The notes under the pieces are model-generated. The model was not told where the DNA came from, did no database searches, and saw only the letters and a list, made by a program, of their open reading frames with translations. 64,000 bases of DNA from the NCBI GenBank assembly GCA_012343875.1, contig GCA_012343875.1_3924.1. The stretch is one strand, 5' to 3'. The position numbers and the translations under genes were made by a program. The DNA is from a phage. Positions within the stretch are counted from its first letter, which is position 1. The number at the start of each line of letters is the position of its first letter. Below are positions 2,802 through 20,520 of this stretch, in pieces.

Positions 2802-3587
2802 TTAGTTCTTTGCGTCTAAGAAGGTAACTTCTGGTGAAGAGAAGATTGCCTCGATATCCTCATCAGTTCTTGCATAGATATAAGCTTCTGCATCACTACC
2901 AAATGTTACAGCAATTCTGTGATTGCTCTTCGACAGGTGGGTAACTAGAGCGTTACTTAGAGACATCTTTTCAACCGGAGGGTTACTTTGATGTATCTTA
3001 CCTTTTCTTCGTCTGAAGAGGGTAACTGCATTATCCGTGAACACTGCTACACCTGCAAAGTATTCTGGCTCACAGTAGTTTTTCCAACCTGAGAGTAACT
3101 TGTGGTACATATCACCTTCATAGACATACAGATAGACATCTACACTCTTCATCACCTGATTGGTGATAACTGTGACAGCTTGAGGGTCAAGTCCACCGAT
3201 ACCTGCACCAATCATAGGTAGACCGACTTTCTTCAACTGATTCACTTCACAGTATCTGTTAAGTTGCTTCAAAGATGACTCTAAAGCACTGTATCGGGCA
3301 TCTTTACCAGTCTTAAGCTGAGTGTAAAGGTTAGCTATACGACCTTGTTTTAAGCGTGCTACAGAGAAATTACCTAGTAAATTCTCACAGGGTTTGTGAC
3401 CTATACCACCTGCATAGAGATAAACTTCTGTATCGGTCTCATATGCTTTTGGGTAAAGTTTAGAAATCTTGTCAGCGATACCTGCACCCATTAAATTCAT
3501 ACAGTTGCAACCGTGACCGATGATGTCAAACTTACCTTTATCAAATGCGGCAAAGATATCACCATTGATTATTTTTACAATACCCAT
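2802..3587 (-). CDS. macro-domain protein (TARG1/DarG-type ADP-ribose binding or hydrolase domain) with C-terminal domain of unknown function
   Basis: N-terminal GDIF..(H)GCNCMNLMGAGIA matches the TARG1/DarG-type macro signature (H-C-x5-MGAGIA) as I recall it. Confidence 0.6.
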   Translation of the reverse strand: MGIVKIINGDIFAAFDKGKFDIIGHGCNCMNLMGAGIADKISKLYPKAYETDTEVYLYAGGIGHKPCENLLGNFSVARLKQGRIANLYTQLKTGKDARYSALESSLKQLNRYCEVNQLKKVGLPMIGAGIGGLDPQAVTVITNQVMKSVDVYLYVYEGDMYHKLLSGWKNYCEPEYFAGVAVFTDNAVTLFRRRKGKIHQSNPPVEKMSLSNALVTHLSKSNHRIAVTFGSDAEAYIYARTDEDIEAIFSSPEVTFLDAKN

Positions 3588-5151: not shown

Positions 5152-5180
5152 ATATTATTCTTGACTGTAATAGTTGACAA
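5152..5180 (-). promoter_or_regulatory. sigma70-like promoter abutting the hairpin (TTGTCA - 17 nt - TAATAT)
   Basis: -35 at 5175-5180 and -10 at 5152-5157 on the minus strand; -10 ends 4 nt before the hairpin. Confidence 0.4.
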
Positions 5181-5967
5181 GTGAAATAACTTGATTCATC
5201 AACAACTTATCAGCCTGTGCTCCGCGACCAGCTTGTAATGCTAGTTGGTATGCTTCTGTAACATATTTGTTAGACATACCTTCACAGTAGTCATTGTAGT
5301 CTTCCCAAAAGGAAAATGCAGCATCACCATATAGGCGTAGTGTAATTAACATTGCTGCACGAATCCCAGAAGAATACTTACGTTTTGCGTTTACTACACC
5401 TTTAAGCTGTACTTCAAGAGAATCAATTTGTTCCAGCTCATTTTTAAAGTCATTAAGGTATTTAACTGTTTCAGTGTTAGAGACCTGTTGCACACCGTAG
5501 TATGCAGCAACATACTTAATAGCAGTTGCCCAAGATGCCTTCATCAGTTCTGACTCTGGGTTGAAAGAAATCATCTTCATATTTCCGTAATAAACTTCTG
5601 AAGGTTTTTCTCTTGCTAACTCAGAGTCAAAATGAGTGTACAAATCTGTGACATCCAGTATGGAGTTCACATGGTATATAACTGCAATCAAGCTTTCTGG
5701 TCGTGTCAGGTTACCAACTTTCCACGCCTCTCGACGTGAGTGACCATCAATGATGAACAGTGAACTACCGAACTTAGCCACATGGACTACTGTTTGGTCT
5801 GGTGATACATCACCATTAAGGTGTTTGCTTTTCAGACGCTTAAGTGTATTCCGTTGACGAGGGTTTTCTTTGTAACGTTTTTCATTAAGAAAATCCTCGA
5901 CACTGATAATCTTAGTGTGAATTTTAACAACCTTGCCATTCAGTGCTACATTGATGCTGTTTGCCAT
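5155..5967 (-). CDS. ParB/Srx-fold (DGQHR-like) domain protein
   Basis: Motif IIDGHSRREAW resembles the ParB/sulfiredoxin/DndB DGQHR-type signature; lies next to Dam. Confidence 0.35.
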   Translation of the reverse strand: MANSINVALNGKVVKIHTKIISVEDFLNEKRYKENPRQRNTLKRLKSKHLNGDVSPDQTVVHVAKFGSSLFIIDGHSRREAWKVGNLTRPESLIAVIYHVNSILDVTDLYTHFDSELAREKPSEVYYGNMKMISFNPESELMKASWATAIKYVAAYYGVQQVSNTETVKYLNDFKNELEQIDSLEVQLKGVVNAKRKYSSGIRAAMLITLRLYGDAAFSFWEDYNDYCEGMSNKYVTEAYQLALQAGRGAQADKLLMNQVISLVNYYSQE

Positions 5968-5978
5968 AACTTGATACC

Positions 5979-6863
5979 TTAGTTGTGAATGATTACTTCG
6001 TTAATACCTTTGCTTCTCTGTGCATGTATTGTGTATGAATGGCTAACCTCTGTCAAGTTAAAATTTTCAGGAATTAAGCTTGTCCATCCATCCCACTGAG
6101 AGTTTGACATCAAAACTTTAGAACCTAACTCCCCCCAAGAAACCATATCTTCGCATAATTTTACAGACATCTCAATGTCAAACTTTGCACCATATTTCTG
6201 GTTGGTGTTGATATACGGGGGGTCACAGTAAATAACTGTGCCTTCTCCATGTTTTATGTCAACCATGTCATAAGGTTCACTGCTAAGTATTACCCTTTCA
6301 TCGGTGATAAAACTGTAGAACTCTGATAGTGATTCTTTAGTTTTTGTGAAGAAAACCTCTTCTTCCAGCAAATACCCACAAGGTGTTGCATAGTGGCCTT
6401 TCATCTCTTTAGTAGTCTGCCATACACCACCAAAACTTAATTTTTGAAGGAAAAACTGTCTGGCATAGTATCTGTAGTCATATGCTCCTTCTTCACCAAG
6501 CAAAAGAAGTTCTTCTCTTATACTGTAATACATTTTATAGCGTAGGCGGTTATGACGCTGACCTTTCACGGCATACTCTTCCTGCATAGGTAAGGCTAAG
6601 TACCTCTTTGACAAGTACTCAAATTCTTCCATAAAGTTTTCATAGTCATCTCTGAAAGTTGTGTAAAGACCTATAATATGTTTATTTATCTCATTAATAA
6701 ACACTTTTGCCTCTGGGTATCTGTTATAAGCCCAGATAGCTACTGAACCACCACCTGAAAACAGGTCATAGAAGTTTTTACAGTTGTCTGGGAAGACACC
6801 TAAACGCTCATACTCTTTTAATATTCTTGTTTTACCACCAAGATATTTGAACATCGGCTTCAT
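5979..6863 (-). CDS. dam: DNA adenine (N6) methyltransferase, Dam-like
   Basis: FSGGGS (SAM-binding motif I) and YCDPPY (DPPY catalytic motif). Confidence 0.8.
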   Translation of the reverse strand: MKPMFKYLGGKTRILKEYERLGVFPDNCKNFYDLFSGGGSVAIWAYNRYPEAKVFINEINKHIIGLYTTFRDDYENFMEEFEYLSKRYLALPMQEEYAVKGQRHNRLRYKMYYSIREELLLLGEEGAYDYRYYARQFFLQKLSFGGVWQTTKEMKGHYATPCGYLLEEEVFFTKTKESLSEFYSFITDERVILSSEPYDMVDIKHGEGTVIYCDPPYINTNQKYGAKFDIEMSVKLCEDMVSWGELGSKVLMSNSQWDGWTSLIPENFNLTEVSHSYTIHAQRSKGINEVIIHN

Positions 6864-9901: not shown

Positions 9902-12268
9902 TTAATCGTAAACTGTTGTACCTTCTGGAACACATTTTACATCAAAGCCTAAGAACTTACTCACTTCGATGGGTGACACTTTATTCCAATCTAAATGAGA
10001 AAGCAAGAAGTTTTCTTGTTTTCTTTTTGAAAGGTAGTTTGTCACCTTAATGACCATGCGGTCACCAGCTTTCTTAATTTTCTTGTACAGTTTTGTATCA
10101 TTGTCAAGGCATTCTTTCAAAGTTTGCAATCTACTAATAGTGTAAGTGTATGCAAACGGTGCGGCAACGTATTGGATTTTACCAAACATAGCCTCTACAG
10201 CCTCTTCATTACCTTCTAGGAAGATAGTTTTGCTAGTATCTCGTGAATAGCAATAGCCACGAGAAATCTTCCTGTTATTGAATGTAAAGTTTCTGGCAAT
10301 AATCCAACTGCTTGTAAGGTCAAGAACACCATTCATGTAGATGCGTGTCATATACCTGTTATGATTAATCCAATGAACATCAGTTAAGCTGTCGTTCAAG
10401 AGTTTCTCATCTACTTCAATCCAGTCTTCTGGTATCTTTTTCCAATTTGCTTTTCGGAAAACATAGACTGTCTTACCTGTAACATTAGCAACTGACTTAG
10501 CTACATCTTCTGGAGATGAGCAAAAACATTCACCATCAACTGTGTCACCGACTGCCTTAATGTAAAGCTGAGGTTCTTCAATTGTATCAAAGTCCTCTGA
10601 AACCTCTTTATAGGAAGCTACACCTTCTGCTGGAACAGCTTTCCAGAGTTTTACAACACCCCTTACAGCTTCTTTACGCTGGTAATGGTGTTCCTTATCA
10701 GACATCTTCACAATCTTTAACAAGCTTTTATCAAGTTTGTGCAGATTGATTAAGTCATCTAGCTCTTTCTCTGTAGAGAATACAAAGACAATACCATTGT
10801 ATCTGTGAAACAGATTTGACTCACTGGCGTAGTCTCGACATGCACCACGCAAAATTTGATTGCGTCCTACAGTCTTCTCAGTACCGTTTTTATTGCGACG
10901 GTCATTAATCACGAACAAAAACTGTTCAATTTGGCTTTTACGCATTGCACCAAAGATATTGAACATACTTGCCTCTTGAGTGTAGGAAAGTGCTGTTGCA
11001 CGAATCTTACTCTCTAAAGAGTTGAACTTGACATAAGCAACTGGGTCATAAAGATAATCTACTTTAGGGATATTGTTCCCGTTCCTATCAACCTTAATAT
11101 TGCCTTTACCGTCACGTTCATAAATGACTGAGCCGTCTTCTGCGTAGATAATTCCACGACGAATGTTTAACAATTCTTCTTCCAGAGAATCAAGCTTAAC
11201 GCCTCCCCACTCTAGCTTTGGACACACAGCATTAAACATCTCTCGTGAGTTCAAACGTAACTCTGCATAAGCCTGTGCAGCATCCATGAGTGTAGGTTGG
11301 CTATTAACTTTCTTGATAACATCCTTTGTAATTGCTTCAGTTATCTTTTTGGTAGCCTCGATGATAACATTTTTTGTCGTATCATTCATCTGCAATGCTT
11401 CACGAGAAGCTGCTATAGCAACTGAACCAATAGGCATGTAGATGTTTACAAGGTCTACGCTCCTACGGAAAAACTCTGGCAAGACTTTGAAGAAATCATC
11501 ACCAAGTAATGCTTCCATGTTCACTGGATAGGCAATATTACCCATCACCACATTAAACTCTGTCCTGTTACCACTAGAACGCCAGCTTTGCTTATGAATC
11601 ATGGCATCATAAACACCTTCTTCACGGGCAATGACGTTCATATCTGCTAATACATCGTCGTACTCAATATTACTTTCTGGTTTTACAGTGAAGTATGAGT
11701 ACACATTTCCAGCTTCTTCAAAGAACTTTGAGATACGGTGGTCAGCAACTGCCACACGTACAGCTAAACCATTTGGTTCTTTTGTTGGGTTAGTGGTCAG
11801 ATTAGTTACTTGAGGGATACCATTCTCAAGATAAACAGAGTACTTATTAACAACACCACCAACATAGCTAGATACTGTGAATGACTGAGCAATTGCAAAT
11901 GGGGATTTTGAGCCGATACCCATTGCACCAATGTAGTCATTAGAGTCATTCTTCGTAGAAGCCCCGTAGTTTAGGTACAAAGTCATAACTTTATCATGAG
12001 TCAATCCAGTTCCAAAATCACGAACTTCAAAGTAAGGCTCAAAACGAGTAGGTAAATGCACATGGAACGGGATGTTCTCTTTTCCAGCTTCTTTCTGAGC
12101 ATCTACTGCGTTACATGACAGTTCACGAATCACTGCCCTTTCTTTAAAGGTATATACACCAGAACTCAAAAGGCTGAACATCTCAGGTGTCATTGTAATC
12201 TGTGCTTGAGACGTCTCTAAAGAAGTTGAACTCTTAATCACTTCTGCGTGGTCATTTACCATGCGCAT
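9902..12268 (-). CDS. rIIA: rIIA-like protein (GHKL/Bergerat-fold ATPase N-terminal domain)
   Basis: AVIRELSCNAVDAQ and GAMGIGSKSPFA match the histidine-kinase-like ATPase motifs of T4 rIIA as I recall them. Confidence 0.7.
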   Translation of the reverse strand: MRMVNDHAEVIKSSTSLETSQAQITMTPEMFSLLSSGVYTFKERAVIRELSCNAVDAQKEAGKENIPFHVHLPTRFEPYFEVRDFGTGLTHDKVMTLYLNYGASTKNDSNDYIGAMGIGSKSPFAIAQSFTVSSYVGGVVNKYSVYLENGIPQVTNLTTNPTKEPNGLAVRVAVADHRISKFFEEAGNVYSYFTVKPESNIEYDDVLADMNVIAREEGVYDAMIHKQSWRSSGNRTEFNVVMGNIAYPVNMEALLGDDFFKVLPEFFRRSVDLVNIYMPIGSVAIAASREALQMNDTTKNVIIEATKKITEAITKDVIKKVNSQPTLMDAAQAYAELRLNSREMFNAVCPKLEWGGVKLDSLEEELLNIRRGIIYAEDGSVIYERDGKGNIKVDRNGNNIPKVDYLYDPVAYVKFNSLESKIRATALSYTQEASMFNIFGAMRKSQIEQFLFVINDRRNKNGTEKTVGRNQILRGACRDYASESNLFHRYNGIVFVFSTEKELDDLINLHKLDKSLLKIVKMSDKEHHYQRKEAVRGVVKLWKAVPAEGVASYKEVSEDFDTIEEPQLYIKAVGDTVDGECFCSSPEDVAKSVANVTGKTVYVFRKANWKKIPEDWIEVDEKLLNDSLTDVHWINHNRYMTRIYMNGVLDLTSSWIIARNFTFNNRKISRGYCYSRDTSKTIFLEGNEEAVEAMFGKIQYVAAPFAYTYTISRLQTLKECLDNDTKLYKKIKKAGDRMVIKVTNYLSKRKQENFLLSHLDWNKVSPIEVSKFLGFDVKCVPEGTTVYD

Positions 12269-12296
12269 AATACTTTCCTCTTAGTTTACTGTTAAA

Positions 12297-12473
12297 TTAC
12301 TTATTAAACATTTTACCAGAACCACCACACATAGGGCAACAACCTGCTCTTGTATACCCTTCTCCATTACAGTAGTCACACTTCTTGTGTTCTGCAAAGT
12401 ACTTACAAAGAAGGTAAACAAGTACTGCTACACTACCAAGTGACAGTAAAATTTCTACCCAATATGCTTGCAT
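12297..12473 (-). CDS. small membrane Cys-rich protein (58 aa), not in ORF track
   Basis: ATG at 12473-12471 with GAGGTG RBS; product MQAYWVEILLSLGSVAVLVYLLCKYFAEHKKCDYCNGEGYTRAGCCPMCGGSGKMFNK (TM helix + CxxC..CCPMCGG). Confidence 0.35.
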   Translation of the reverse strand: MQAYWVEILLSLGSVAVLVYLLCKYFAEHKKCDYCNGEGYTRAGCCPMCGGSGKMFNK

Positions 12474-12790
12474 GACTCACCTCTCATGTTTTTGTAAAGG
12501 ATAAAGCTTCTGTCATGGACGATACTTGTAGATACTGCAAAGTTACTTTCAAGCATCTGTTTGTTTGGATTGTAGAAGCTTTCTTTAAACTCGTCAAGTG
12601 CAAATTGGTGATTGTCTGGAAGACCTTTTACACACACCTTTATTGTGATTGCTGCTGCAATCTTCCCAGTCAGTTCTTCTTTAGCTGCTACTAAGATTTT
12701 GTTGAGGAACTTATGACCATTTTCAGGCTTCTTGATGTTCTCCCAACGCTCTTCTAAGACAATGTTGATGTTCATCTCTTTGATTTTCAT
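12455..12790 (-). CDS. hypothetical protein (111 aa)
   Basis: Co-directional ORF directly downstream of the promoter-hairpin-RBS element at 12806-12860. Confidence 0.4.
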   Translation of the reverse strand: MKIKEMNINIVLEERWENIKKPENGHKFLNKILVAAKEELTGKIAAAITIKVCVKGLPDNHQFALDEFKESFYNPNKQMLESNFAVSTSIVHDRSFILYKNMRGESCKHIG

Positions 12791-12805
12791 AATTTTCTCC
12801 AGAAA

Positions 12806-12828
12806 TTAAAAAGGCTCCCGTAGGAGCC
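12806..12828 (-). terminator. intrinsic terminator-like hairpin GGCTCC-UACG-GGAGCC + U-tract
   Basis: Minus strand: GGCTCCTACGGGAGCC TTTTTAATTT, downstream of the NAMPT-like gene. Confidence 0.55.
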
Positions 12829-12832
12829 TATT

Positions 12833-12860
12833 ATCATATACTTTTAAAGCTGCTTGTCAA
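12833..12860 (-). promoter_or_regulatory. sigma70-like promoter abutting the hairpin (TTGACA - 16 nt - TATGAT)
   Basis: -35 at 12855-12860, -10 at 12833-12838 on the minus strand. Confidence 0.4.
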
Positions 12861-14625
12861 TATTATTTCGAATATCGCCAAGAGTTGTGTAGCCGAACTG
12901 CTCAGAGTCGCTAAAGACTAAACGTAAAGCACAAGCTGGATGCTCAAGTGCATCTGCAAAACTCTGGAATCCATAGCCATCTACAGCTTTCAGATTCTCA
13001 CCATCCCACATAGGGGCTACACCACCAAAAGCAGACTTCTTAATACCACTATCTGTTTTAGGGTCTTTTGCAAGCATAATCTCTTTACCACCAATGCTTG
13101 CAAGAGTTGCTTTGACAGCAAATGCAAAGGTGTCACGAGTCATGTACTGGTAAGTGTAAGAACCTACACCAAACACTACGTTAGAGCTTGCAAAACCCAT
13201 TTCATACAAACGCTTCAGGATTTCGTTTGCACGTTCCAGCGTGATAGAGTCACCATAGATAAGGCCAATGTGCTCATCCAGTACCTTAAACCCTTTAGAG
13301 TTGATAGTTCCTCCAAAGATGTTATACAAGGTCTTAATGGCCCCATCAATCTCTGCTACAGGACGTGTTACAACGTTTGCAGAACCAACCATATAGGCGT
13401 TTTTCAACATCACTGTATCAGCAACTTCAAAGTCTTCTCTGTCAACAACCATTTCGTAGCCTTCTGACAGTAGCCATCCAGCAATACCATAGTTGATGTT
13501 TTCAAGCTTCATGTTCAGAACAGCATTCAACATTGTGTCACTGGCTTCCAGCTTGATTAGGTGCTCGTAATAAGCCTTCTTAGCACATTCTAAGTGGATT
13601 GCTTTATAACCTGTGACAATATGTACAGGGTCTCCAGAGTCAGGACGAATTACCAGTTTGCCATCACGTTCCATAATTTCTTTACGAAGTGCTGGTAAGA
13701 TTTCTGACACAGTTCTCCAGAAGTTATAAGTGTCTGAAACAACACTTGCAATACCAGTTGGGTAAGTTTCTGTTAAGAAACGACGGAAGGTTTGTAACTC
13801 ACCTTTAAAGCGTCTTTCTTCTTCAATCAACTCATTACCACCTTCCCAAGCAATGTTTGCACACATTACAGAGTGCTCAGTGGCTGGTACAGAACTACCA
13901 ATATCAGAAATTGGGTAAGACTGTCCATAGATGCGTTTAGCCGTGTATACAGCAGGGAAACTATCAGTTCCTTTAAAGCTGGTTAAGTGACCTACAGCAT
14001 TAAATGCGTCATCGGTAAAGCCGGACATACCACGCATAGCAAAGTCATGGCACTGATAAGGTAAATGTAAGTCGTTGTCGCAAGTAAGGTCAGCCCACTT
14101 CTTACAGATGCGTTTATAATGCAATGCAATAGTTGCAATGGTACAAGCCTTCCAAATCTCAGCAGAGAAAGCATCTTCCAGATACCCTGCTACCCAATGG
14201 AAACCTGAAACAGTGTTCTGGAAGACAATCATTGGGACACGCATAGGGACAACTGTACCTTCTTCTACAGCGTATACTTCAACTGGTAGATAACCTAAGT
14301 CATGAAGTGCTTCCCAATGCTCTCGACCGATAGCATCTTTACCCAGAACACCATTCATGACTTCTAAGATTTCATCAATGGCTTCTTTTTTATCACGTTC
14401 AAAGAAAGTGGCGTTCCAGTGGTCTATCAAGTAATCTTTAACGAAACGTTGAATACCAAAAGCTACTACACCATCAATTACTAAGGGGCTGTTAAACCAT
14501 TTGTCACTACGTGGTGTCAGGTTGAACATCAAGTACTCTGTTGCACTAGGGTACTGGTAAACATGACCAGATTTGTAAGCATCTGCGTTTAAACCTGCTG
14601 GTACTGCATAAAGTGATTTAGTCAT
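12844..14625 (-). CDS. nicotinamide phosphoribosyltransferase family protein (NadV/NAMPT-like; candidate nicotinamide ADP-ribose transferase)
   Basis: N-terminal DAYKSGHVYQYP .. YLMFNLTPRS matches the NAMPT-family signature as I recall it; 593 aa is longer than a typical NadV. Confidence 0.8.
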   Translation of the reverse strand: MTKSLYAVPAGLNADAYKSGHVYQYPSATEYLMFNLTPRSDKWFNSPLVIDGVVAFGIQRFVKDYLIDHWNATFFERDKKEAIDEILEVMNGVLGKDAIGREHWEALHDLGYLPVEVYAVEEGTVVPMRVPMIVFQNTVSGFHWVAGYLEDAFSAEIWKACTIATIALHYKRICKKWADLTCDNDLHLPYQCHDFAMRGMSGFTDDAFNAVGHLTSFKGTDSFPAVYTAKRIYGQSYPISDIGSSVPATEHSVMCANIAWEGGNELIEEERRFKGELQTFRRFLTETYPTGIASVVSDTYNFWRTVSEILPALRKEIMERDGKLVIRPDSGDPVHIVTGYKAIHLECAKKAYYEHLIKLEASDTMLNAVLNMKLENINYGIAGWLLSEGYEMVVDREDFEVADTVMLKNAYMVGSANVVTRPVAEIDGAIKTLYNIFGGTINSKGFKVLDEHIGLIYGDSITLERANEILKRLYEMGFASSNVVFGVGSYTYQYMTRDTFAFAVKATLASIGGKEIMLAKDPKTDSGIKKSAFGGVAPMWDGENLKAVDGYGFQSFADALEHPACALRLVFSDSEQFGYTTLGDIRNNIDKQL

Positions 14626-14670
14626 CTTTTAATCTCTCTCAAAATGGGGCTTTTAAGCCCCTATAAACTT

Positions 14671-15567
14671 TCAATCAAGGTTTGCTACAGTAACTTGACT
14701 GTAATGTGTTAAGCCACGGTCTTTAGCTTCGCCTAAAGAGTTTGTAGTGTAGATGTGGTCAATGCCATTGTCAAGAAGGTTTTCAACATCTTTAGAGAAG
14801 ATACCATGTGTTACATAGAGTTCCACACGTTTTGCACCTGCTTCACGAAGATGTTTCGCTGCTTCTATGAAGGTTCGCCCACCATCACAGATATCATCCA
14901 GAATCATGACGGTTTTATCTGTCAAATCAACATCATCAAGGATTCGCATACCAGTAATTTCACCAGTCTTAAGGTTACGCACTTTAGACATTGTGATGTA
15001 TGGTTTATCCACCTCTTTAGCAGTCTCTGCAATCTTCTTAGCAGCACCTGCATCTGGGGCTACTAAGTAATCAATCAGTGGGTCATTTGCATAGTGGACT
15101 GCAATTTCCTTTTGAGGAATACTCTGGAAGCAGTTAAACAGGTTATCTGGTACATAGCTGTGAGGGTCAACTGCACAGACTGCGCCAAACCCCATTGCAT
15201 TAATTTGTTTAGCAAAAACCTTTAAAGCTGCTGCGTCACCTTTAAACATGTGACGGTCATAACGTGCATTTGGTAAGTAGTAAAAGATGACAGTCTTTAA
15301 AGCATAATCATGAGGAATTAAATCATCAATTGCTTCTTTAGCAAGTGCCACAGCAAACAAAGTGTCCTTATCATAACCTTTTACAATCATAATCACATTG
15401 TTGATGGATGATGCTGCATAAGCAGTAAAATCAACAAACTCTGGCGAAAAGTGTCCACCAATCTCACCAGAAGGGAATTGGACGATGTTAAACTCTTCTT
15501 CATGAGTCCCTTTAGTTGGTGAATGAACTGTAACACGGATAGATGTTTTCATAGTTTTCTCTCTCAA
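14671..15567 (-). CDS. ribose-phosphate pyrophosphokinase family protein (Prs-like; candidate ADP-ribose pyrophosphokinase)
   Basis: PRPP-binding loop ILDDICDGGRT, VAPDAGA and YVTHGIF motifs typical of the Prs family. Confidence 0.8.
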   Translation of the reverse strand: MREKTMKTSIRVTVHSPTKGTHEEEFNIVQFPSGEIGGHFSPEFVDFTAYAASSINNVIMIVKGYDKDTLFAVALAKEAIDDLIPHDYALKTVIFYYLPNARYDRHMFKGDAAALKVFAKQINAMGFGAVCAVDPHSYVPDNLFNCFQSIPQKEIAVHYANDPLIDYLVAPDAGAAKKIAETAKEVDKPYITMSKVRNLKTGEITGMRILDDVDLTDKTVMILDDICDGGRTFIEAAKHLREAGAKRVELYVTHGIFSKDVENLLDNGIDHIYTTNSLGEAKDRGLTHYSQVTVANLD

Positions 15568-15842
15568 TCAAAAGTTACGTTTGTTACTGCCATTGCAGAT
15601 TTGCATTTTGCAGGGTCTACAACGTGATAAAGTACACTACAGTTACCTGTGCTGTCTGGTACAGGCTTTACCCATTGCTGCTTTATAGTTGGCTCTCCTA
15701 AGTCTTTGTAAGAGCCATCTGTAAAGTTGTTTACCATCTCAAGTGCAATTGGTTCTGGAACATGACCACGTATCATGTACATCTCACAACCATTACCACC
15801 TTCACTGACTAATGGTAAAATTTCCCACTTTTCTTTAGCCAT
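15564..15842 (-). CDS. hypothetical protein (92 aa)
   Basis: Co-directional ORF overlapping the Prs-like start by 4 nt (translationally coupled). Confidence 0.4.
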   Translation of the reverse strand: MAKEKWEILPLVSEGGNGCEMYMIRGHVPEPIALEMVNNFTDGSYKDLGEPTIKQQWVKPVPDSTGNCSVLYHVVDPAKCKSAMAVTNVTFD

Positions 15843-16350
15843 TATAAGTTGCCCTATAAACTGTCTCGAACTTCAACAGGAGAGATATTGCCAAAGCTGT
15901 ATAGTTGTTGTCAAGCACGTCTGGCATATTATTTTTGATATATTTCTCTTGCTCTTCATAGGTCATCTTAGGAATACTTAGGAGGCTATCTCCTTGCTTC
16001 TGGTTATCAGCTTTAGTTTGGATAAACCAGTTCGCACAGTGATGTTCACCACCTTTTGTAACAGGTTTGTGGTGGCCTAGTGTAAATGTTTGCTTACCCG
16101 TATACCTGCAAAGATTGTTCAGTGTTGCAATGGTGTTCTTCACAACACACCATTCATACAGGTTATCTATTGTGTAGTGTGGGTAATAACGGACAAGCGC
16201 TCTTTCACGGAAGTTATCACGATTCCAAAGAACCATGTGATTAGAATTTGAAGGGTCATATTTGTGGGAGTCTATAAATTCTTGACGCTCATCAAAGCTG
16301 AGTCTTAGAACTGACATTGCAACCGAACGTTTCAGGTTTGACAGATACAT
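15835..16350 (-). CDS. hypothetical protein with HNH-like motif
   Basis: GHHKPVTKGGEHHCANWF..N resembles the HHxPxxxGG..N core of HNH nucleases (weak, by eye). Confidence 0.35.
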   Translation of the reverse strand: MYLSNLKRSVAMSVLRLSFDERQEFIDSHKYDPSNSNHMVLWNRDNFRERALVRYYPHYTIDNLYEWCVVKNTIATLNNLCRYTGKQTFTLGHHKPVTKGGEHHCANWFIQTKADNQKQGDSLLSIPKMTYEEQEKYIKNNMPDVLDNNYTALAISLLLKFETVYRATYNG

Positions 16351-16362
16351 TTTACCTCCAAA

Positions 16363-16388
16363 ATAAAAAGGGAACCTTTACAGTTCCC
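16363..16388 (-). terminator. intrinsic terminator-like hairpin GGGAAC..GTTCCC + U-tract
   Basis: Minus strand: GGGAACTGTAAAGGTTCCC TTTTTATTTT. Confidence 0.5.
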
Positions 16389-16401
16389 CTATAGTATCTG
16401 T

Positions 16402-16722
16402 TTACTGAGCTACTTTCAAGAGGCTTGTGAATGGAATCTCACTCTCATCCATAAGCTCTTTTGCTTTTCCAGTAACTTTTACAAAGTTATCTAGGCAGAT
16501 AATCTTCTTATCTTTCTTGCTGTAGGTCAGTTTCACCTTTTCAATATCTTTCTTAGAGCTTTCCTCTTCATTAAAGAGCTTCACAGCTTCTTTGAATGGA
16601 AGGTATGAGCCATCATCATCACTAATAAAACCTGTGCCGCAATAGTAGAAGTTATATTCTTTAGCCATAAACTGGCACAGTACGAAAATCTGTAATTTGC
16701 GAGTGTTATAAACTTTGCTCAT
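16402..16722 (-). CDS. hypothetical protein (106 aa)
   Basis: Co-directional ORF. Confidence 0.4.
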   Translation of the reverse strand: MSKVYNTRKLQIFVLCQFMAKEYNFYYCGTGFISDDDGSYLPFKEAVKLFNEEESSKKDIEKVKLTYSKKDKKIICLDNFVKVTGKAKELMDESEIPFTSLLKVAQ

Positions 16723-18375: not shown

Positions 18376-20520
18376 TTACATAGAGACTCTATCACGAATC
18401 TCAGCGATTTTTGCATCGTTCATTCGGGATTCACCTTTAATCTTAGTCCATCCAAGATACCCACACACCCTGTTAATCACAGAGATATCATGTGAATGGC
18501 AAACCTCGCATTCTTCAACATCAGCCTTTGGTCTGTTACCACAATGTTCACAGATTGCTAAGTCAAAGTTAAGCCCCTGATAGAAACCTTTCAACATCCC
18601 TCTTGTGATACAACTTTTAAGTGCTGTTAAGTTTTCTGGGTTAGCTACCCTGACATACTGGATTCTCCCACCTCTACAGATATGGAAGAATGGCTCTTCT
18701 AAGTCCTGCTTCTCAAATGGTGAGATGTCTGCTGCAACATTCATATGGAAACTGTTTGTAAAGTATTCCTTATCAGAAACACCTTTGATAACGCCAAACA
18801 TATCTCTGAACTGTTTTAGCTGAGTTCCGCAAAGTGATTCTGCTGGAGTACCATAGACGGCATATAAGAAGCCATCTTCATTTTTAAACTCTTCAGTTTT
18901 CATGTTGATGTATGCCAGAACATCGTATGCAAAACTACAGCTTCCAACTTCATGAAGTCGTTTACCTTCAGCAAGAACAGATAGCTCATCAAGCGCAGTA
19001 ACCCCAAAAGAAGCTGTGAAGGACTTCACAATATCCCAACCAACCTTGTCAGTAGGTTTCTTAGTTCCTTTGTACAGACCACCTTGTGTGAATGCAAGAG
19101 GGTTAGAACTTGCTGGCATATTAGCAATCATTTCGTAGCGTTTCTTGTGGAAGCTGCGAATCATCTCTAGGTACTTATCAAGCTCTTTCCAGAAATCTAA
19201 ACCACTCTCTTTAGAATACTGGTAAATCATCGGTAAGTTCAAAGATACAGCACCAATGTTAGCACGACCAACATAGAACTCTTCCCCATCCTCATTAAGA
19301 TATGGAGATAAGAAGGCTCTGCAACCCATCGGTGAAATTACCTTGCCAGAACGCTCAAAAGCCTCTGCTACAGCACCATGACCAGATACACTTAAGAAGT
19401 CTGGATACATTGCTTTAGAGCAACACTCAATAGCTTTACTGTACAGGTGACCTTGACAGATATTTTCATCATGTCTCTTCTGGTCATAAATATAAACCAG
19501 TTTAGGAAATACAACAGGCTTCTTGCTCTTACCTTGTCCATTCATACGAACATCTAGGAGAGTACTTGCAATCATGTATTGTAATCGGTTGTCTTCATTA
19601 GACATGTCTGAGTCAAGTAACCCAAATGTTAAAGTTGTGAATGCAAAATCCCCACGACTACAAGGTACAGTGTTTAGTTTCATTTCAAGTGACTGGAAAC
19701 CTTGAGTTAATTCAATCTGTAACTGCTCCATGACATAATTATGGTAATGTTCTTTAGGAATACCATAAGATGTTGCTTTCTCAGCATGATAGCGTAGAGA
19801 CTTCTTAGCATACGGTACAAGTACCTTGTCAATCTCTGCTAAAGTAAAGCCACCAAATTGCTGTGCAGTTGCTGAAAGAACTACGTCACCAATAACTTGT
19901 AAGGCCGACAGCACAGACTTCGGTTCACAATATTCGATGCCAGACATTTCAAAGCCACCCTTCAGCACTTTACCAATGTCAAACAGGCAACAGTTGATAC
20001 CACCAAAAATCAGGTCTCTTAAGTCATGGATGTAGATAAACCCTTTTTCAATGGCTTCAAGTTCCTCTGGTGTTAAATGGTACTGTTTAAAGATTTCTTT
20101 AGTCAGGTAACCACGAATAATTGAACCTTTTGTAGAAATTAAACTGCTGTCAAAGTTAGCATTTTCACGGTCACCTAAGAAGAGTGTATCTTTAGTCTTC
20201 TGGTAGAGTTCGTCCCAATTTTGAGCAACCTCTTTACGGTAATTTCTGTATGTTGAGTAAGACTCATAAATCTCGTGATTGACCTCTGCCAAAGCACCTT
20301 CAACAATACTGTGAATATCATTTACCGAGATAAGCAAATTATTCTGCTTAGTGGACTTTACCAAAATCCTCATGAATGCTGACTCAAGAGCTTGGGTAAC
20401 ATCTGGTGGCAGTTCTTTATATCCAACCCTGTTAGCTGACTTTGTTACTGCCGCTAAAACTTTTTTGATATCAGGTTCTTCAAGTGAGCCATTCTTTTTA
20501 ATAATCTGTACTTTGTTCAT
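18376..20520 (-). CDS. nrdD: anaerobic ribonucleoside-triphosphate reductase (class III)
   Basis: C-terminal glycine-radical motif RVCGYLG and Zn-ribbon CEHCGN..CEVCHS; 714 aa. Confidence 0.9.
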   Translation of the reverse strand: MNKVQIIKKNGSLEEPDIKKVLAAVTKSANRVGYKELPPDVTQALESAFMRILVKSTKQNNLLISVNDIHSIVEGALAEVNHEIYESYSTYRNYRKEVAQNWDELYQKTKDTLFLGDRENANFDSSLISTKGSIIRGYLTKEIFKQYHLTPEELEAIEKGFIYIHDLRDLIFGGINCCLFDIGKVLKGGFEMSGIEYCEPKSVLSALQVIGDVVLSATAQQFGGFTLAEIDKVLVPYAKKSLRYHAEKATSYGIPKEHYHNYVMEQLQIELTQGFQSLEMKLNTVPCSRGDFAFTTLTFGLLDSDMSNEDNRLQYMIASTLLDVRMNGQGKSKKPVVFPKLVYIYDQKRHDENICQGHLYSKAIECCSKAMYPDFLSVSGHGAVAEAFERSGKVISPMGCRAFLSPYLNEDGEEFYVGRANIGAVSLNLPMIYQYSKESGLDFWKELDKYLEMIRSFHKKRYEMIANMPASSNPLAFTQGGLYKGTKKPTDKVGWDIVKSFTASFGVTALDELSVLAEGKRLHEVGSCSFAYDVLAYINMKTEEFKNEDGFLYAVYGTPAESLCGTQLKQFRDMFGVIKGVSDKEYFTNSFHMNVAADISPFEKQDLEEPFFHICRGGRIQYVRVANPENLTALKSCITRGMLKGFYQGLNFDLAICEHCGNRPKADVEECEVCHSHDISVINRVCGYLGWTKIKGESRMNDAKIAEIRDRVSM

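Follow-up and report, generated by a model that had tools for sequence, protein, structure and literature searches.

What does a phage gain from encoding a protein of the phosphoribosyl pyrophosphate (PRPP) synthetase (Prs) family next to one of the nicotinamide phosphoribosyltransferase (NAMPT) family? We addressed this question for a 64,000-nucleotide stretch of phage DNA (contig GCA_012343875.1_3924.1 of GenBank assembly GCA_012343875.1), referred to as the window, in which the two genes lie side by side on one strand. The original prediction, made from the letters alone, held that the pair rebuilds NAD+ from ADP-ribose (ADPR) and nicotinamide instead of feeding a classical salvage route via nicotinamide mononucleotide (NMN). 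This reading is borne out: orthology, synteny, fold, conservation of catalytic and substrate-selectivity residues and the failure to detect an NMN adenylyltransferase (NMNAT) all point in the same direction, and we are highly confident that the pair is the NARP1 operon (Adps plus Namat) of a Felix O1-like phage. It represents the re-identification of a published and characterized system in its original genus, and the core pathway is already known. The two genes, with protein lengths in amino acids (aa), are:

12844..14625, minus strand: namat, nicotinamide ADP-ribose transferase, 593 aa, orthologue of Bas63 gp80
14671..15552, minus strand: adps, ADP-ribose pyrophosphate synthetase, 293 aa from its ATG, orthologue of Bas63 gp79

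Orthology with the NARP1 operon of Bas63

The window comes from a Felixounavirus (Felix O1-like) genome and runs antiparallel to that of Escherichia phage JohannRWettstein (Bas63, MZ501086), with which it is collinear over positions 2835-67752 of the latter. Open reading frames (ORFs) and Pfam families confirmed the neighboring, co-oriented genes of the original prediction, with the Prs-family gene located upstream of the NAMPT-family gene and a spacer of 45 nucleotides (nt) between them; the PHROGs assignments for the two ORFs are phrog_448 and phrog_619. A megablast search with positions 12000-16500 retrieved 256 phage records; in 217 of them the match extends over 80% or more of the query, with an identity of about 90-97%. 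All of these 217 records stem from Felix O1-like phages (Escherichia, Salmonella, Shigella and Citrobacter), and in each of them adps and namat are neighbors on the same strand, so that the pairing is not due to chance. Altogether, NARP1 of this lineage is carried by 253-261 phage records. Comparison with Bas63 revealed purifying selection on both genes, with dN/dS values of 0.05 in namat and of 0.13 in the diverged half of adps. The Bas63 operon resembles that of the window in its genus, its location, with the nrdG block on one side and rIIA on the other, its gene order, its protein lengths (293 and 593 aa), the inserted subdomain and the clamp residues of Namat, and the intergenic hairpin; it differs in that its Adps is only 78% identical and in that Bas63 has an additional gene, bas63_0081.

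The original work on NARP1 by Osterman et al. was reportedly published later in Nature, in 2024. The operon in which the system was discovered consists of genes 79-80 of Bas63 (Osterman et al., bioRxiv 10.1101/2024.02.11.579819). A Bas63 derivative lacking both genes becomes sensitive to SIR2-HerA, and ADP-ribose pyrophosphate (ADPR-PP, m/z 720.010) was seen only upon infection of defence-carrying cells with wild-type Bas63 (10.1101/2024.02.11.579819). In an independent knockout screen, deletion of either g79 or g80 alone reduced plating on Sir2-HerA cells 10^4-10^6-fold, a defect that could be complemented, and had weaker effects with the Ec86 retron and hhe (10.1101/2024.10.10.617714). The underlying chemistry was worked out with the homologues from the Bacillus phage SPbetaL1, because the Bas63 protein could not be purified well: SPbetaL1 Adps forms ADPR-PP from ADPR and ATP, and SPbetaL1 Namat forms NAD+ from ADPR-PP and nicotinamide, with a preference for ADPR-PP over PRPP (10.1101/2024.02.11.579819).

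In the proposed mechanism, NAD+ would be cleaved into ADPR and nicotinamide by a host defence such as SIR2-HerA, type I Thoeris, DSR1/2 or SEFIR. Adps would then transfer pyrophosphate from ATP to the free ribose of ADPR, and Namat would swap the pyrophosphate of the resulting ADPR-PP for nicotinamide and thereby yield NAD+ directly, such that neither an NMN intermediate nor an NMNAT would be required. By analogy with the characterized homologues, the proteins encoded in the window, the divergent Adps allele included, would be expected to carry out the same chemistry and to act in counter-defence.

Features that distinguish Namat and Adps from NadV and Prs

The 593-aa protein matches NAPRTase (PF04095, 5.8e-35) and NAMPT_N (PF18127) in Pfam and is 98% identical to Bas63 gp80. 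An AlphaFold2 (AF2) model of high quality (pLDDT 94.1, pTM 0.92) found its best Foldseek matches in 9w5x and 9w5w, both deposited as 'Crystal structure of Namat' (E 2e-54, target TM-score 0.95), followed by NadV from H. ducreyi and then by mammalian NAMPT. The crystal structure paper on SPbetaL1 Namat defines a catalytic core and a Namat-specific 'selectivity clamp' for the adenine moiety (PMC12774641), and by these definitions every residue of the SPbetaL1 protein that contacts nicotinamide, the ribose phosphate or AMP is identical or conservatively replaced in the window Namat. In the alignment, D13 and Y15 of SPbetaL1 Namat correspond to D15 and Y17, F189, R192, D215 and H245 to F195, R198, D221 and H251, R306 and D308 to R327 and D329, G360-D361-A362 to G458-D459-S460, and G390-S391-F392, Y396 and T398-R399-D400 to G488-S489-Y490, Y494 and T496-R497-D498. 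The catalytic-core columns F195, R198, D221, H251, R327 and D329 are invariant among 39 homologues. Two parts of the protein are of particular relevance here:

13132..13164, minus strand: selectivity-clamp helix motif of Namat, G488-S-Y-T-Y-Q-Y-M-T-R-D498, located by alignment
13345..13608, minus strand: inserted subdomain of Namat, residues about 340-427 (~88 aa)

The clamp helix is defined by the motif GSX-phi-X-phi-X-phi-TRD in which positions 3 and 7 are aromatic (PMC12774641), and the window sequence GSYTYQYMTRD conforms to this definition. The same positions read GGGLLQQLDRD in NadV from the Vibrio phage KVP40, GAQTYQRNTRD in H. ducreyi NadV and GGALLQKVDRD in Xanthomonas Nampt. E. coli prs and H. 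ducreyi NadV (9ke8) share the superfamilies and the phosphoribosyl/pyrophosphoryl transfer chemistry with the window pair, but NadV carries Q and R where Namat has its adenine-stacking aromatics. The second element, the clamp loop, calls for Arg, Lys or Tyr as the third residue plus a stacking residue. The loop of the window Namat, S40-D41-K42-W43, has both and is the same as in Bas63, for which the fourth residue was modelled as the stacker (PMC12774641). In SPbetaL1 the stacker is R40, which aligns with K42 of the window protein, whereas the latter uses K42-W43 in the arrangement described for Bas63 (PMC12774641).

SPbetaL1 NARP1 is otherwise alike in being a two-gene operon and in Namat fold, identical catalytic residues and the clamp-helix motif, with 38% identity between the Namat proteins. 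SPbetaL1 Namat has only 491 aa, to which the window Namat adds insertions of ~88 aa (340-427) and ~15 aa (about 259-273). The larger of these accounts for the length of 593 aa; it is folded, is common to Bas63 Namat, is missing from SPbetaL1 Namat, bacterial Namat and NAMPT, and matches no recognizable fold. The original prediction gave the length correctly but considered it unusual, whereas it is normal for the lineage, as Bas63 Namat also has 593 aa.

As for adps, the mechanical ORF call (14671-15567, 298 aa), which the original prediction had adopted, starts from an upstream TTG at 15567. The ORF is real, but translation most probably begins at the ATG at 15552 (293 aa) instead, because this codon coincides with the annotated start of Bas63 gp79 and is preceded by a TTGAGAGAGA context, as is the ATG of namat. 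Adps shares 78% identity with gp79 (293 aa in both cases), 39% with Adps of Vibrio phage Gary and 28.7% over 195 aa with E. coli Prs. Pfam reports Pribosyltran (PF00156) and Pribosyl_synth (PF14572) in Adps and no match to Pribosyltran_N (PF13793), the N-terminal domain of Prs. Among the NCBIfam models, the protein reaches the broad subfamily TIGR01251 (124.8 vs. 113 bits) and none that is narrower, and it fails the cut-offs of all Prs equivalogs (best 104.7 vs. 296), while E. coli Prs, taken as a control, passes its own equivalog model with 532.6 vs. 297. Both the equivalog thresholds and Pribosyltran_N, by which housekeeping Prs in a Prs/NadV salvage pathway would be recognized, therefore speak against such an assignment. 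The Prs motifs NARYDR, DPHS, SKVR with K190, and DDICDGGRT are kept. The catalytic lysine is K162 in SPbetaL1 Adps, equivalent to K197 in B. subtilis Prs and K194 in E. coli Prs; in the HMMER alignment with S. solfataricus Prs, K190 of the window protein falls on the loop lysine, and in a MAFFT alignment with E. coli Prs it sits one residue off the catalytic lysine. A PDB sequence search did not turn up a solved Adps structure. Judged by its sequence, the protein probably belongs to the Adps lineage and not to housekeeping Prs. Of the checks that the original prediction had proposed, the profile comparison of Adps, which fails the Prs equivalogs, and the structure comparison of Namat, whose model lies closest to the Namat crystals, ahead of NadV, came out in its favor.

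Related and competing pathways

NARP1 also occurs in extended forms. Vibrio phage Gary encodes NARP1-AP (Adps-Adpp-Namat; bioRxiv 10.64898/2026.01.28.702374), the Adpp of which is a biochemically proven ADPR-1''-phosphate phosphatase (bioRxiv 10.64898/2026.01.28.702374). ADPR-1''-phosphate is the product of NAD+ phosphorolysis by aRES/RES. Macro-domain genes were counted in the preprint on aRES only if they lay no more than two genes from NARP1, and no Escherichia or Felix O1-like phage appears in its table. In the window, neither Macro (Adpp) nor RyR (PF02026) domains, the latter being the mark of a RyDEP-associated operon, were found by Pfam at E<=10 in the four small genes flanking the pair, nor was either found in bas63_0081. 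By the operon-based definitions, the locus therefore is a plain NARP1 and not a NARP1-AP or RyDEP-linked form. The window has homologues of Gary Adps and Namat, and an Adpp-family Macro protein is encoded elsewhere:

2802..3587, minus strand: Adpp-family Macro-domain gene, homologue of Bas63_0095 ('putative phosphatase'), 261 aa, 96% identity

This raises the possibility of a dispersed three-enzyme NARP1-AP, an extension of NARP1 more than a true rival to it, in which the Macro protein would convert ADPR-1''-phosphate to ADPR in trans and thus feed Adps. The Macro domain occupies residues 4-155 of the protein (PF01661, 1.3e-7) and scores 32 bits with the generic Pfam model, against 105 bits, with nearly the whole model covered, for a profile built from the 13 NARP1-associated Adpp sequences in Table S1 of the aRES preprint. 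BLASTP aligns the protein with the proven Gary Adpp at 28% identity over 147 aa (E 3e-13), and its closest PDB relatives, OARD1/TARG1, are those of Adpp. The gene lies on the same strand as adps-namat, and 244 phage records contain it at >=60% identity, a number close to that of the records with NARP1 of this lineage; the chemistry does not require operon linkage. On the other hand, whereas the phosphatase gene of Gary sits between adps and namat, that of the window lies 9.3 kb and many genes away from namat, and the encoded protein is 100 aa longer, with an unexplained C-terminal extension of about this size. The same Macro subfamily occurs in 2774 phage records, among them T4-like phages that lack NARP1, so that its primary role may differ, for example in clearing ADPR-1''-phosphate from Tpt1-type RNA repair or in reversing ADP-ribosylation; for this reason we treat the link to NARP1 as a hypothesis. 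The text on the knockout screen reports no phenotype for Bas63 g95 (10.1101/2024.10.10.617714). On balance, we regard a dispersed NARP1-AP as possible but rather doubtful. If it were true, these phages could also rebuild NAD+ after RES-type (aRES) cleavage, and surveys restricted to operon-linked Macro genes (15% of NARP1 phages) would underestimate the NARP1-AP capacity.

A classical salvage pathway, in which the Prs-like protein supplies PRPP, a NadV-like protein forms NMN from PRPP and nicotinamide, and the NadR/PncC activities of the host complete NAD+, is what the names in public annotations, ribose-phosphate pyrophosphokinase and nicotinamide phosphoribosyltransferase, would suggest. The NCBIfam 'nicotinate phosphoribosyltransferase' equivalog NF006629 likewise fits such a pathway, being passed by the window Namat, but it is passed equally by KVP40 NadV and proved useless for discriminating Namat from NadV; as NCBIfam moreover has no model for Adps or Namat, automated annotation will keep mislabelling NARP1 genes. 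The formation of NMN from PRPP by Namat in vitro (PMC12774641; 10.1101/2024.02.11.579819) is also in line with salvage. When offered both donors, however, Namat yielded only NAD+, and SPbetaL1 Adps, which forms ADPR-PP from ADPR, gave no product in a PRPP-synthetase assay, the substrate of which was R5P (ribose 5-phosphate) according to the figure legend and PRPP according to the text (10.1101/2024.02.11.579819). The window Namat possesses the adenine clamp, which is absent from NadV and NAMPT, and Adps stays below the Prs equivalog cut-offs.

The absence of an NMNAT from the window had been put forward as an argument against NadV salvage, and this argument holds. NadD and NadR of E. coli and the NadR-like NMNAT of KVP40 served as tblastn queries against the window and, as a stand-in for the part of the genome beyond it, against the whole Bas63 genome; the best E value was 0.15, and the annotations of the Bas63 genome do not include an NMNAT either. 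A tblastn search with NadR across phages produced matches in T5-like, jumbo and other phages and is uninformative on absence in Felixounaviruses. NARP2 of KVP40 (NadV/Nampt plus NMNAT) is comparable in that a phage NAMPT-family enzyme restores NAD+. It is characterized by an NMNAT partner and a clamp-less, PRPP-preferring Nampt: KVP40 NadV, which shares 26-29% identity with the window protein, has GGGLLQQLDRD in place of the aromatic clamp, favors PRPP and depends on NMNAT, whereas the aromatic clamp is present and no NMNAT was found in the window. Taken together, we consider classical salvage very unlikely for the window pair, and for the Bas63 orthologue it is largely refuted.

Least probable of all is a role of the pair outside immunity, as a source of PRPP and pyridine nucleotides when the phage synthesizes its DNA, which the proximity of the pair to nrdD and nrdG and its listing under nucleotide metabolism in the 2010 Felix O1 genome paper (PMC3185647) might imply, given that Bas63 without genes 79-80 plates normally on defence-free cells and is defective only in the presence of certain defences (10.1101/2024.02.11.579819, 10.1101/2024.10.10.617714), that NARP1 does not raise NAD+ in defence-free cells, and that a natural relative entirely lacks the cassette, which is thus dispensable.

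Several points have to be set against the assignment of the pair to NARP1. The classification as Adps versus Prs and as Namat versus Nampt is based on identity and motifs, together with model cut-offs for Adps and the fold for Namat. Between the window Adps and the Bas63 allele that was tested genetically, 22% of the residues differ, and the differences cluster in the first 180 aa, where identity to Bas63 gp79 is 67%. The in vitro chemistry stems from the SPbetaL1 homologues (~38% identity for Namat) and not from enzymes of the Felixounavirus type (10.1101/2024.02.11.579819). About 23 kb of the phage genome lie beyond the window, and for this part the absence of an NMNAT rests on Bas63. Finally, since Namat retains the activity of forming NMN from PRPP in vitro, some flux through classical salvage is possible.

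Surroundings and variation of the operon

Beyond the two genes themselves, the following features describe the setting of NARP1 in the window:

14646..14661, minus strand: intergenic hairpin GGGGCUUAAAAGCCCC in the 45-nt adps-namat spacer, found by folding, stem conserved in Bas63
12812..12829, minus strand: terminator-like hairpin and U-tract directly after the namat stop codon, -13.8 kcal/mol
16368..16390, minus strand: upstream terminator-like hairpin with U-tract, from terminator scan and folding
15835-16350, minus strand: 171-aa gene, homologue of Bas63 gp77, 88% identity
15564-15842, minus strand: 92-aa gene, homologue of Bas63 gp78, 100% identity
9902-12268, minus strand: rIIA homologue downstream of namat, 97% identity to Bas63
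15020-15552, minus strand: diverged 5' part of adps (~540 nt), a different allele from that of Bas63

The short hairpin that the original prediction had noticed between the genes was recovered as a 6-bp G+C stem (GGGGCU-UAAA-AGCCCC, followed by AUUUU; -14.3 kcal/mol, z -2.9). The terminator scan did not call it at 14646-14661, because its tail comprises only 4 U, and it may act as a weak terminator or as an mRNA-stability element. The four genes between the hairpins at 16368-16390 and 12812-12829, i.e., those for the 171-aa and 92-aa proteins, adps and namat, would form one transcription unit. We consider the first two as context outside the enzymatic pathway. Bas63 gp77 has been reported to counter the Ec67 retron (10.1101/2024.10.10.617714); its 171-aa homologue shows weak similarity to HNH endonucleases in PHROGs, while the preprint speaks of GIY-YIG (10.1101/2024.10.10.617714). 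The rIIA/rIIB pair downstream of namat has been reported to counter qatABCD (10.1101/2024.10.10.617714). NARP1 is thus flanked by homologues of reported counter-defence genes, and on this account the neighborhood looks like a counter-defence region. The 92-aa gp78 was considered as a NARP1 accessory and rejected: it has no domains and only 13 homologue clusters, all from Ounavirinae-like contigs, and a relative without NARP1 still keeps its N-terminal part as a fusion with another ORF. We therefore treat it as flanking context.

Three further differences from Bas63 were observed. The gene bas63_0081 (114 aa; L002 9509-9853), located directly downstream of namat in Bas63, is missing from the window at ~12797. 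A segment of 1.7 kb at 5155-6863 (minus strand) does not occur in Bas63; it encodes a 270-aa protein without domain match and a 294-aa D12-class N6-adenine DNA methyltransferase (PF02086, 2.2e-23) and looks like a variable anti-restriction islet. The nrdD gene (18376-20520, minus strand) is uninterrupted and encodes 714 aa, while nrdD of Bas63 is split by an intervening sequence with a homing endonuclease (bas63_0068).

The relative without NARP1 is a 51-kb metagenomic Felix O1-like contig (ENA ERZ28615805 scaffold_152) that has neither adps nor namat and in which the gene order is nrdG ... gp77, an 80-aa ORF, gp83, rIIA and rIIB. The 80-aa ORF (6001-6243 of this contig, L008) begins as gp78 and continues, after an in-frame fusion, as the C-terminus of gp82. 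The fusion junction falls on a short repeat, whose exact core TTGCACTTGA is present in the window at 15739-15748 and 12594-12603, i.e., 3145 bp apart; the repeat flanking the cassette is exact over 10 nt and matches at 14/15 nt overall. Paralogy of gp78 and gp82 as an explanation for a deletion is unsupported (BLASTP E 1.4), and the two share only the 10-nt microhomology. The empty-site arrangement was found in 0 of 212 related isolate genomes. It may be the product of a microhomology-mediated deletion or the ancestral uninterrupted site.

Variation is also evident within adps. At the nucleotide level, the window and Bas63 are 100% identical as far as the start codon of adps; from there the identity falls to 58-64%, and it exceeds 90% again by ~15020. 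Relative to Bas63, dS amounts to 1.78 and dN/dS to 0.13 for codons 1-180, while dS is 0.40 for codons 181-293 and 0.18 for namat. The allele of the window type (>=90% identity) occurs in ~155 phage records and that of the Bas63 type (60-80%) in ~94. Positive selection as the cause of the divergence was rejected, since the low dN/dS of the 5' part and its saturated dS argue for recombination with an old allele. The pattern indicates that the 5' half of adps was probably replaced by an anciently diverged allele that is under purifying selection.

For the core pathway, the window adds nothing new, and its practical value lies in annotation: public records and NCBIfam still label the pair as Prs and nicotinate/nicotinamide phosphoribosyltransferase, while Namat can be told from NadV by the combination of an adps neighbor with the clamp motif GSYTYQYMTRD. 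The unlinked Adpp-like Macro gene, the mosaic adps and the presence or absence of the cassette offer small leads on the evolution of counter-defence modules. Felix O1-like phages are in wide use for typing, biocontrol and therapy directed at Salmonella and E. coli, and the pair explains how they plate on hosts with NAD+-depleting defences, as was established in 2024 for the Bas63 orthologues.

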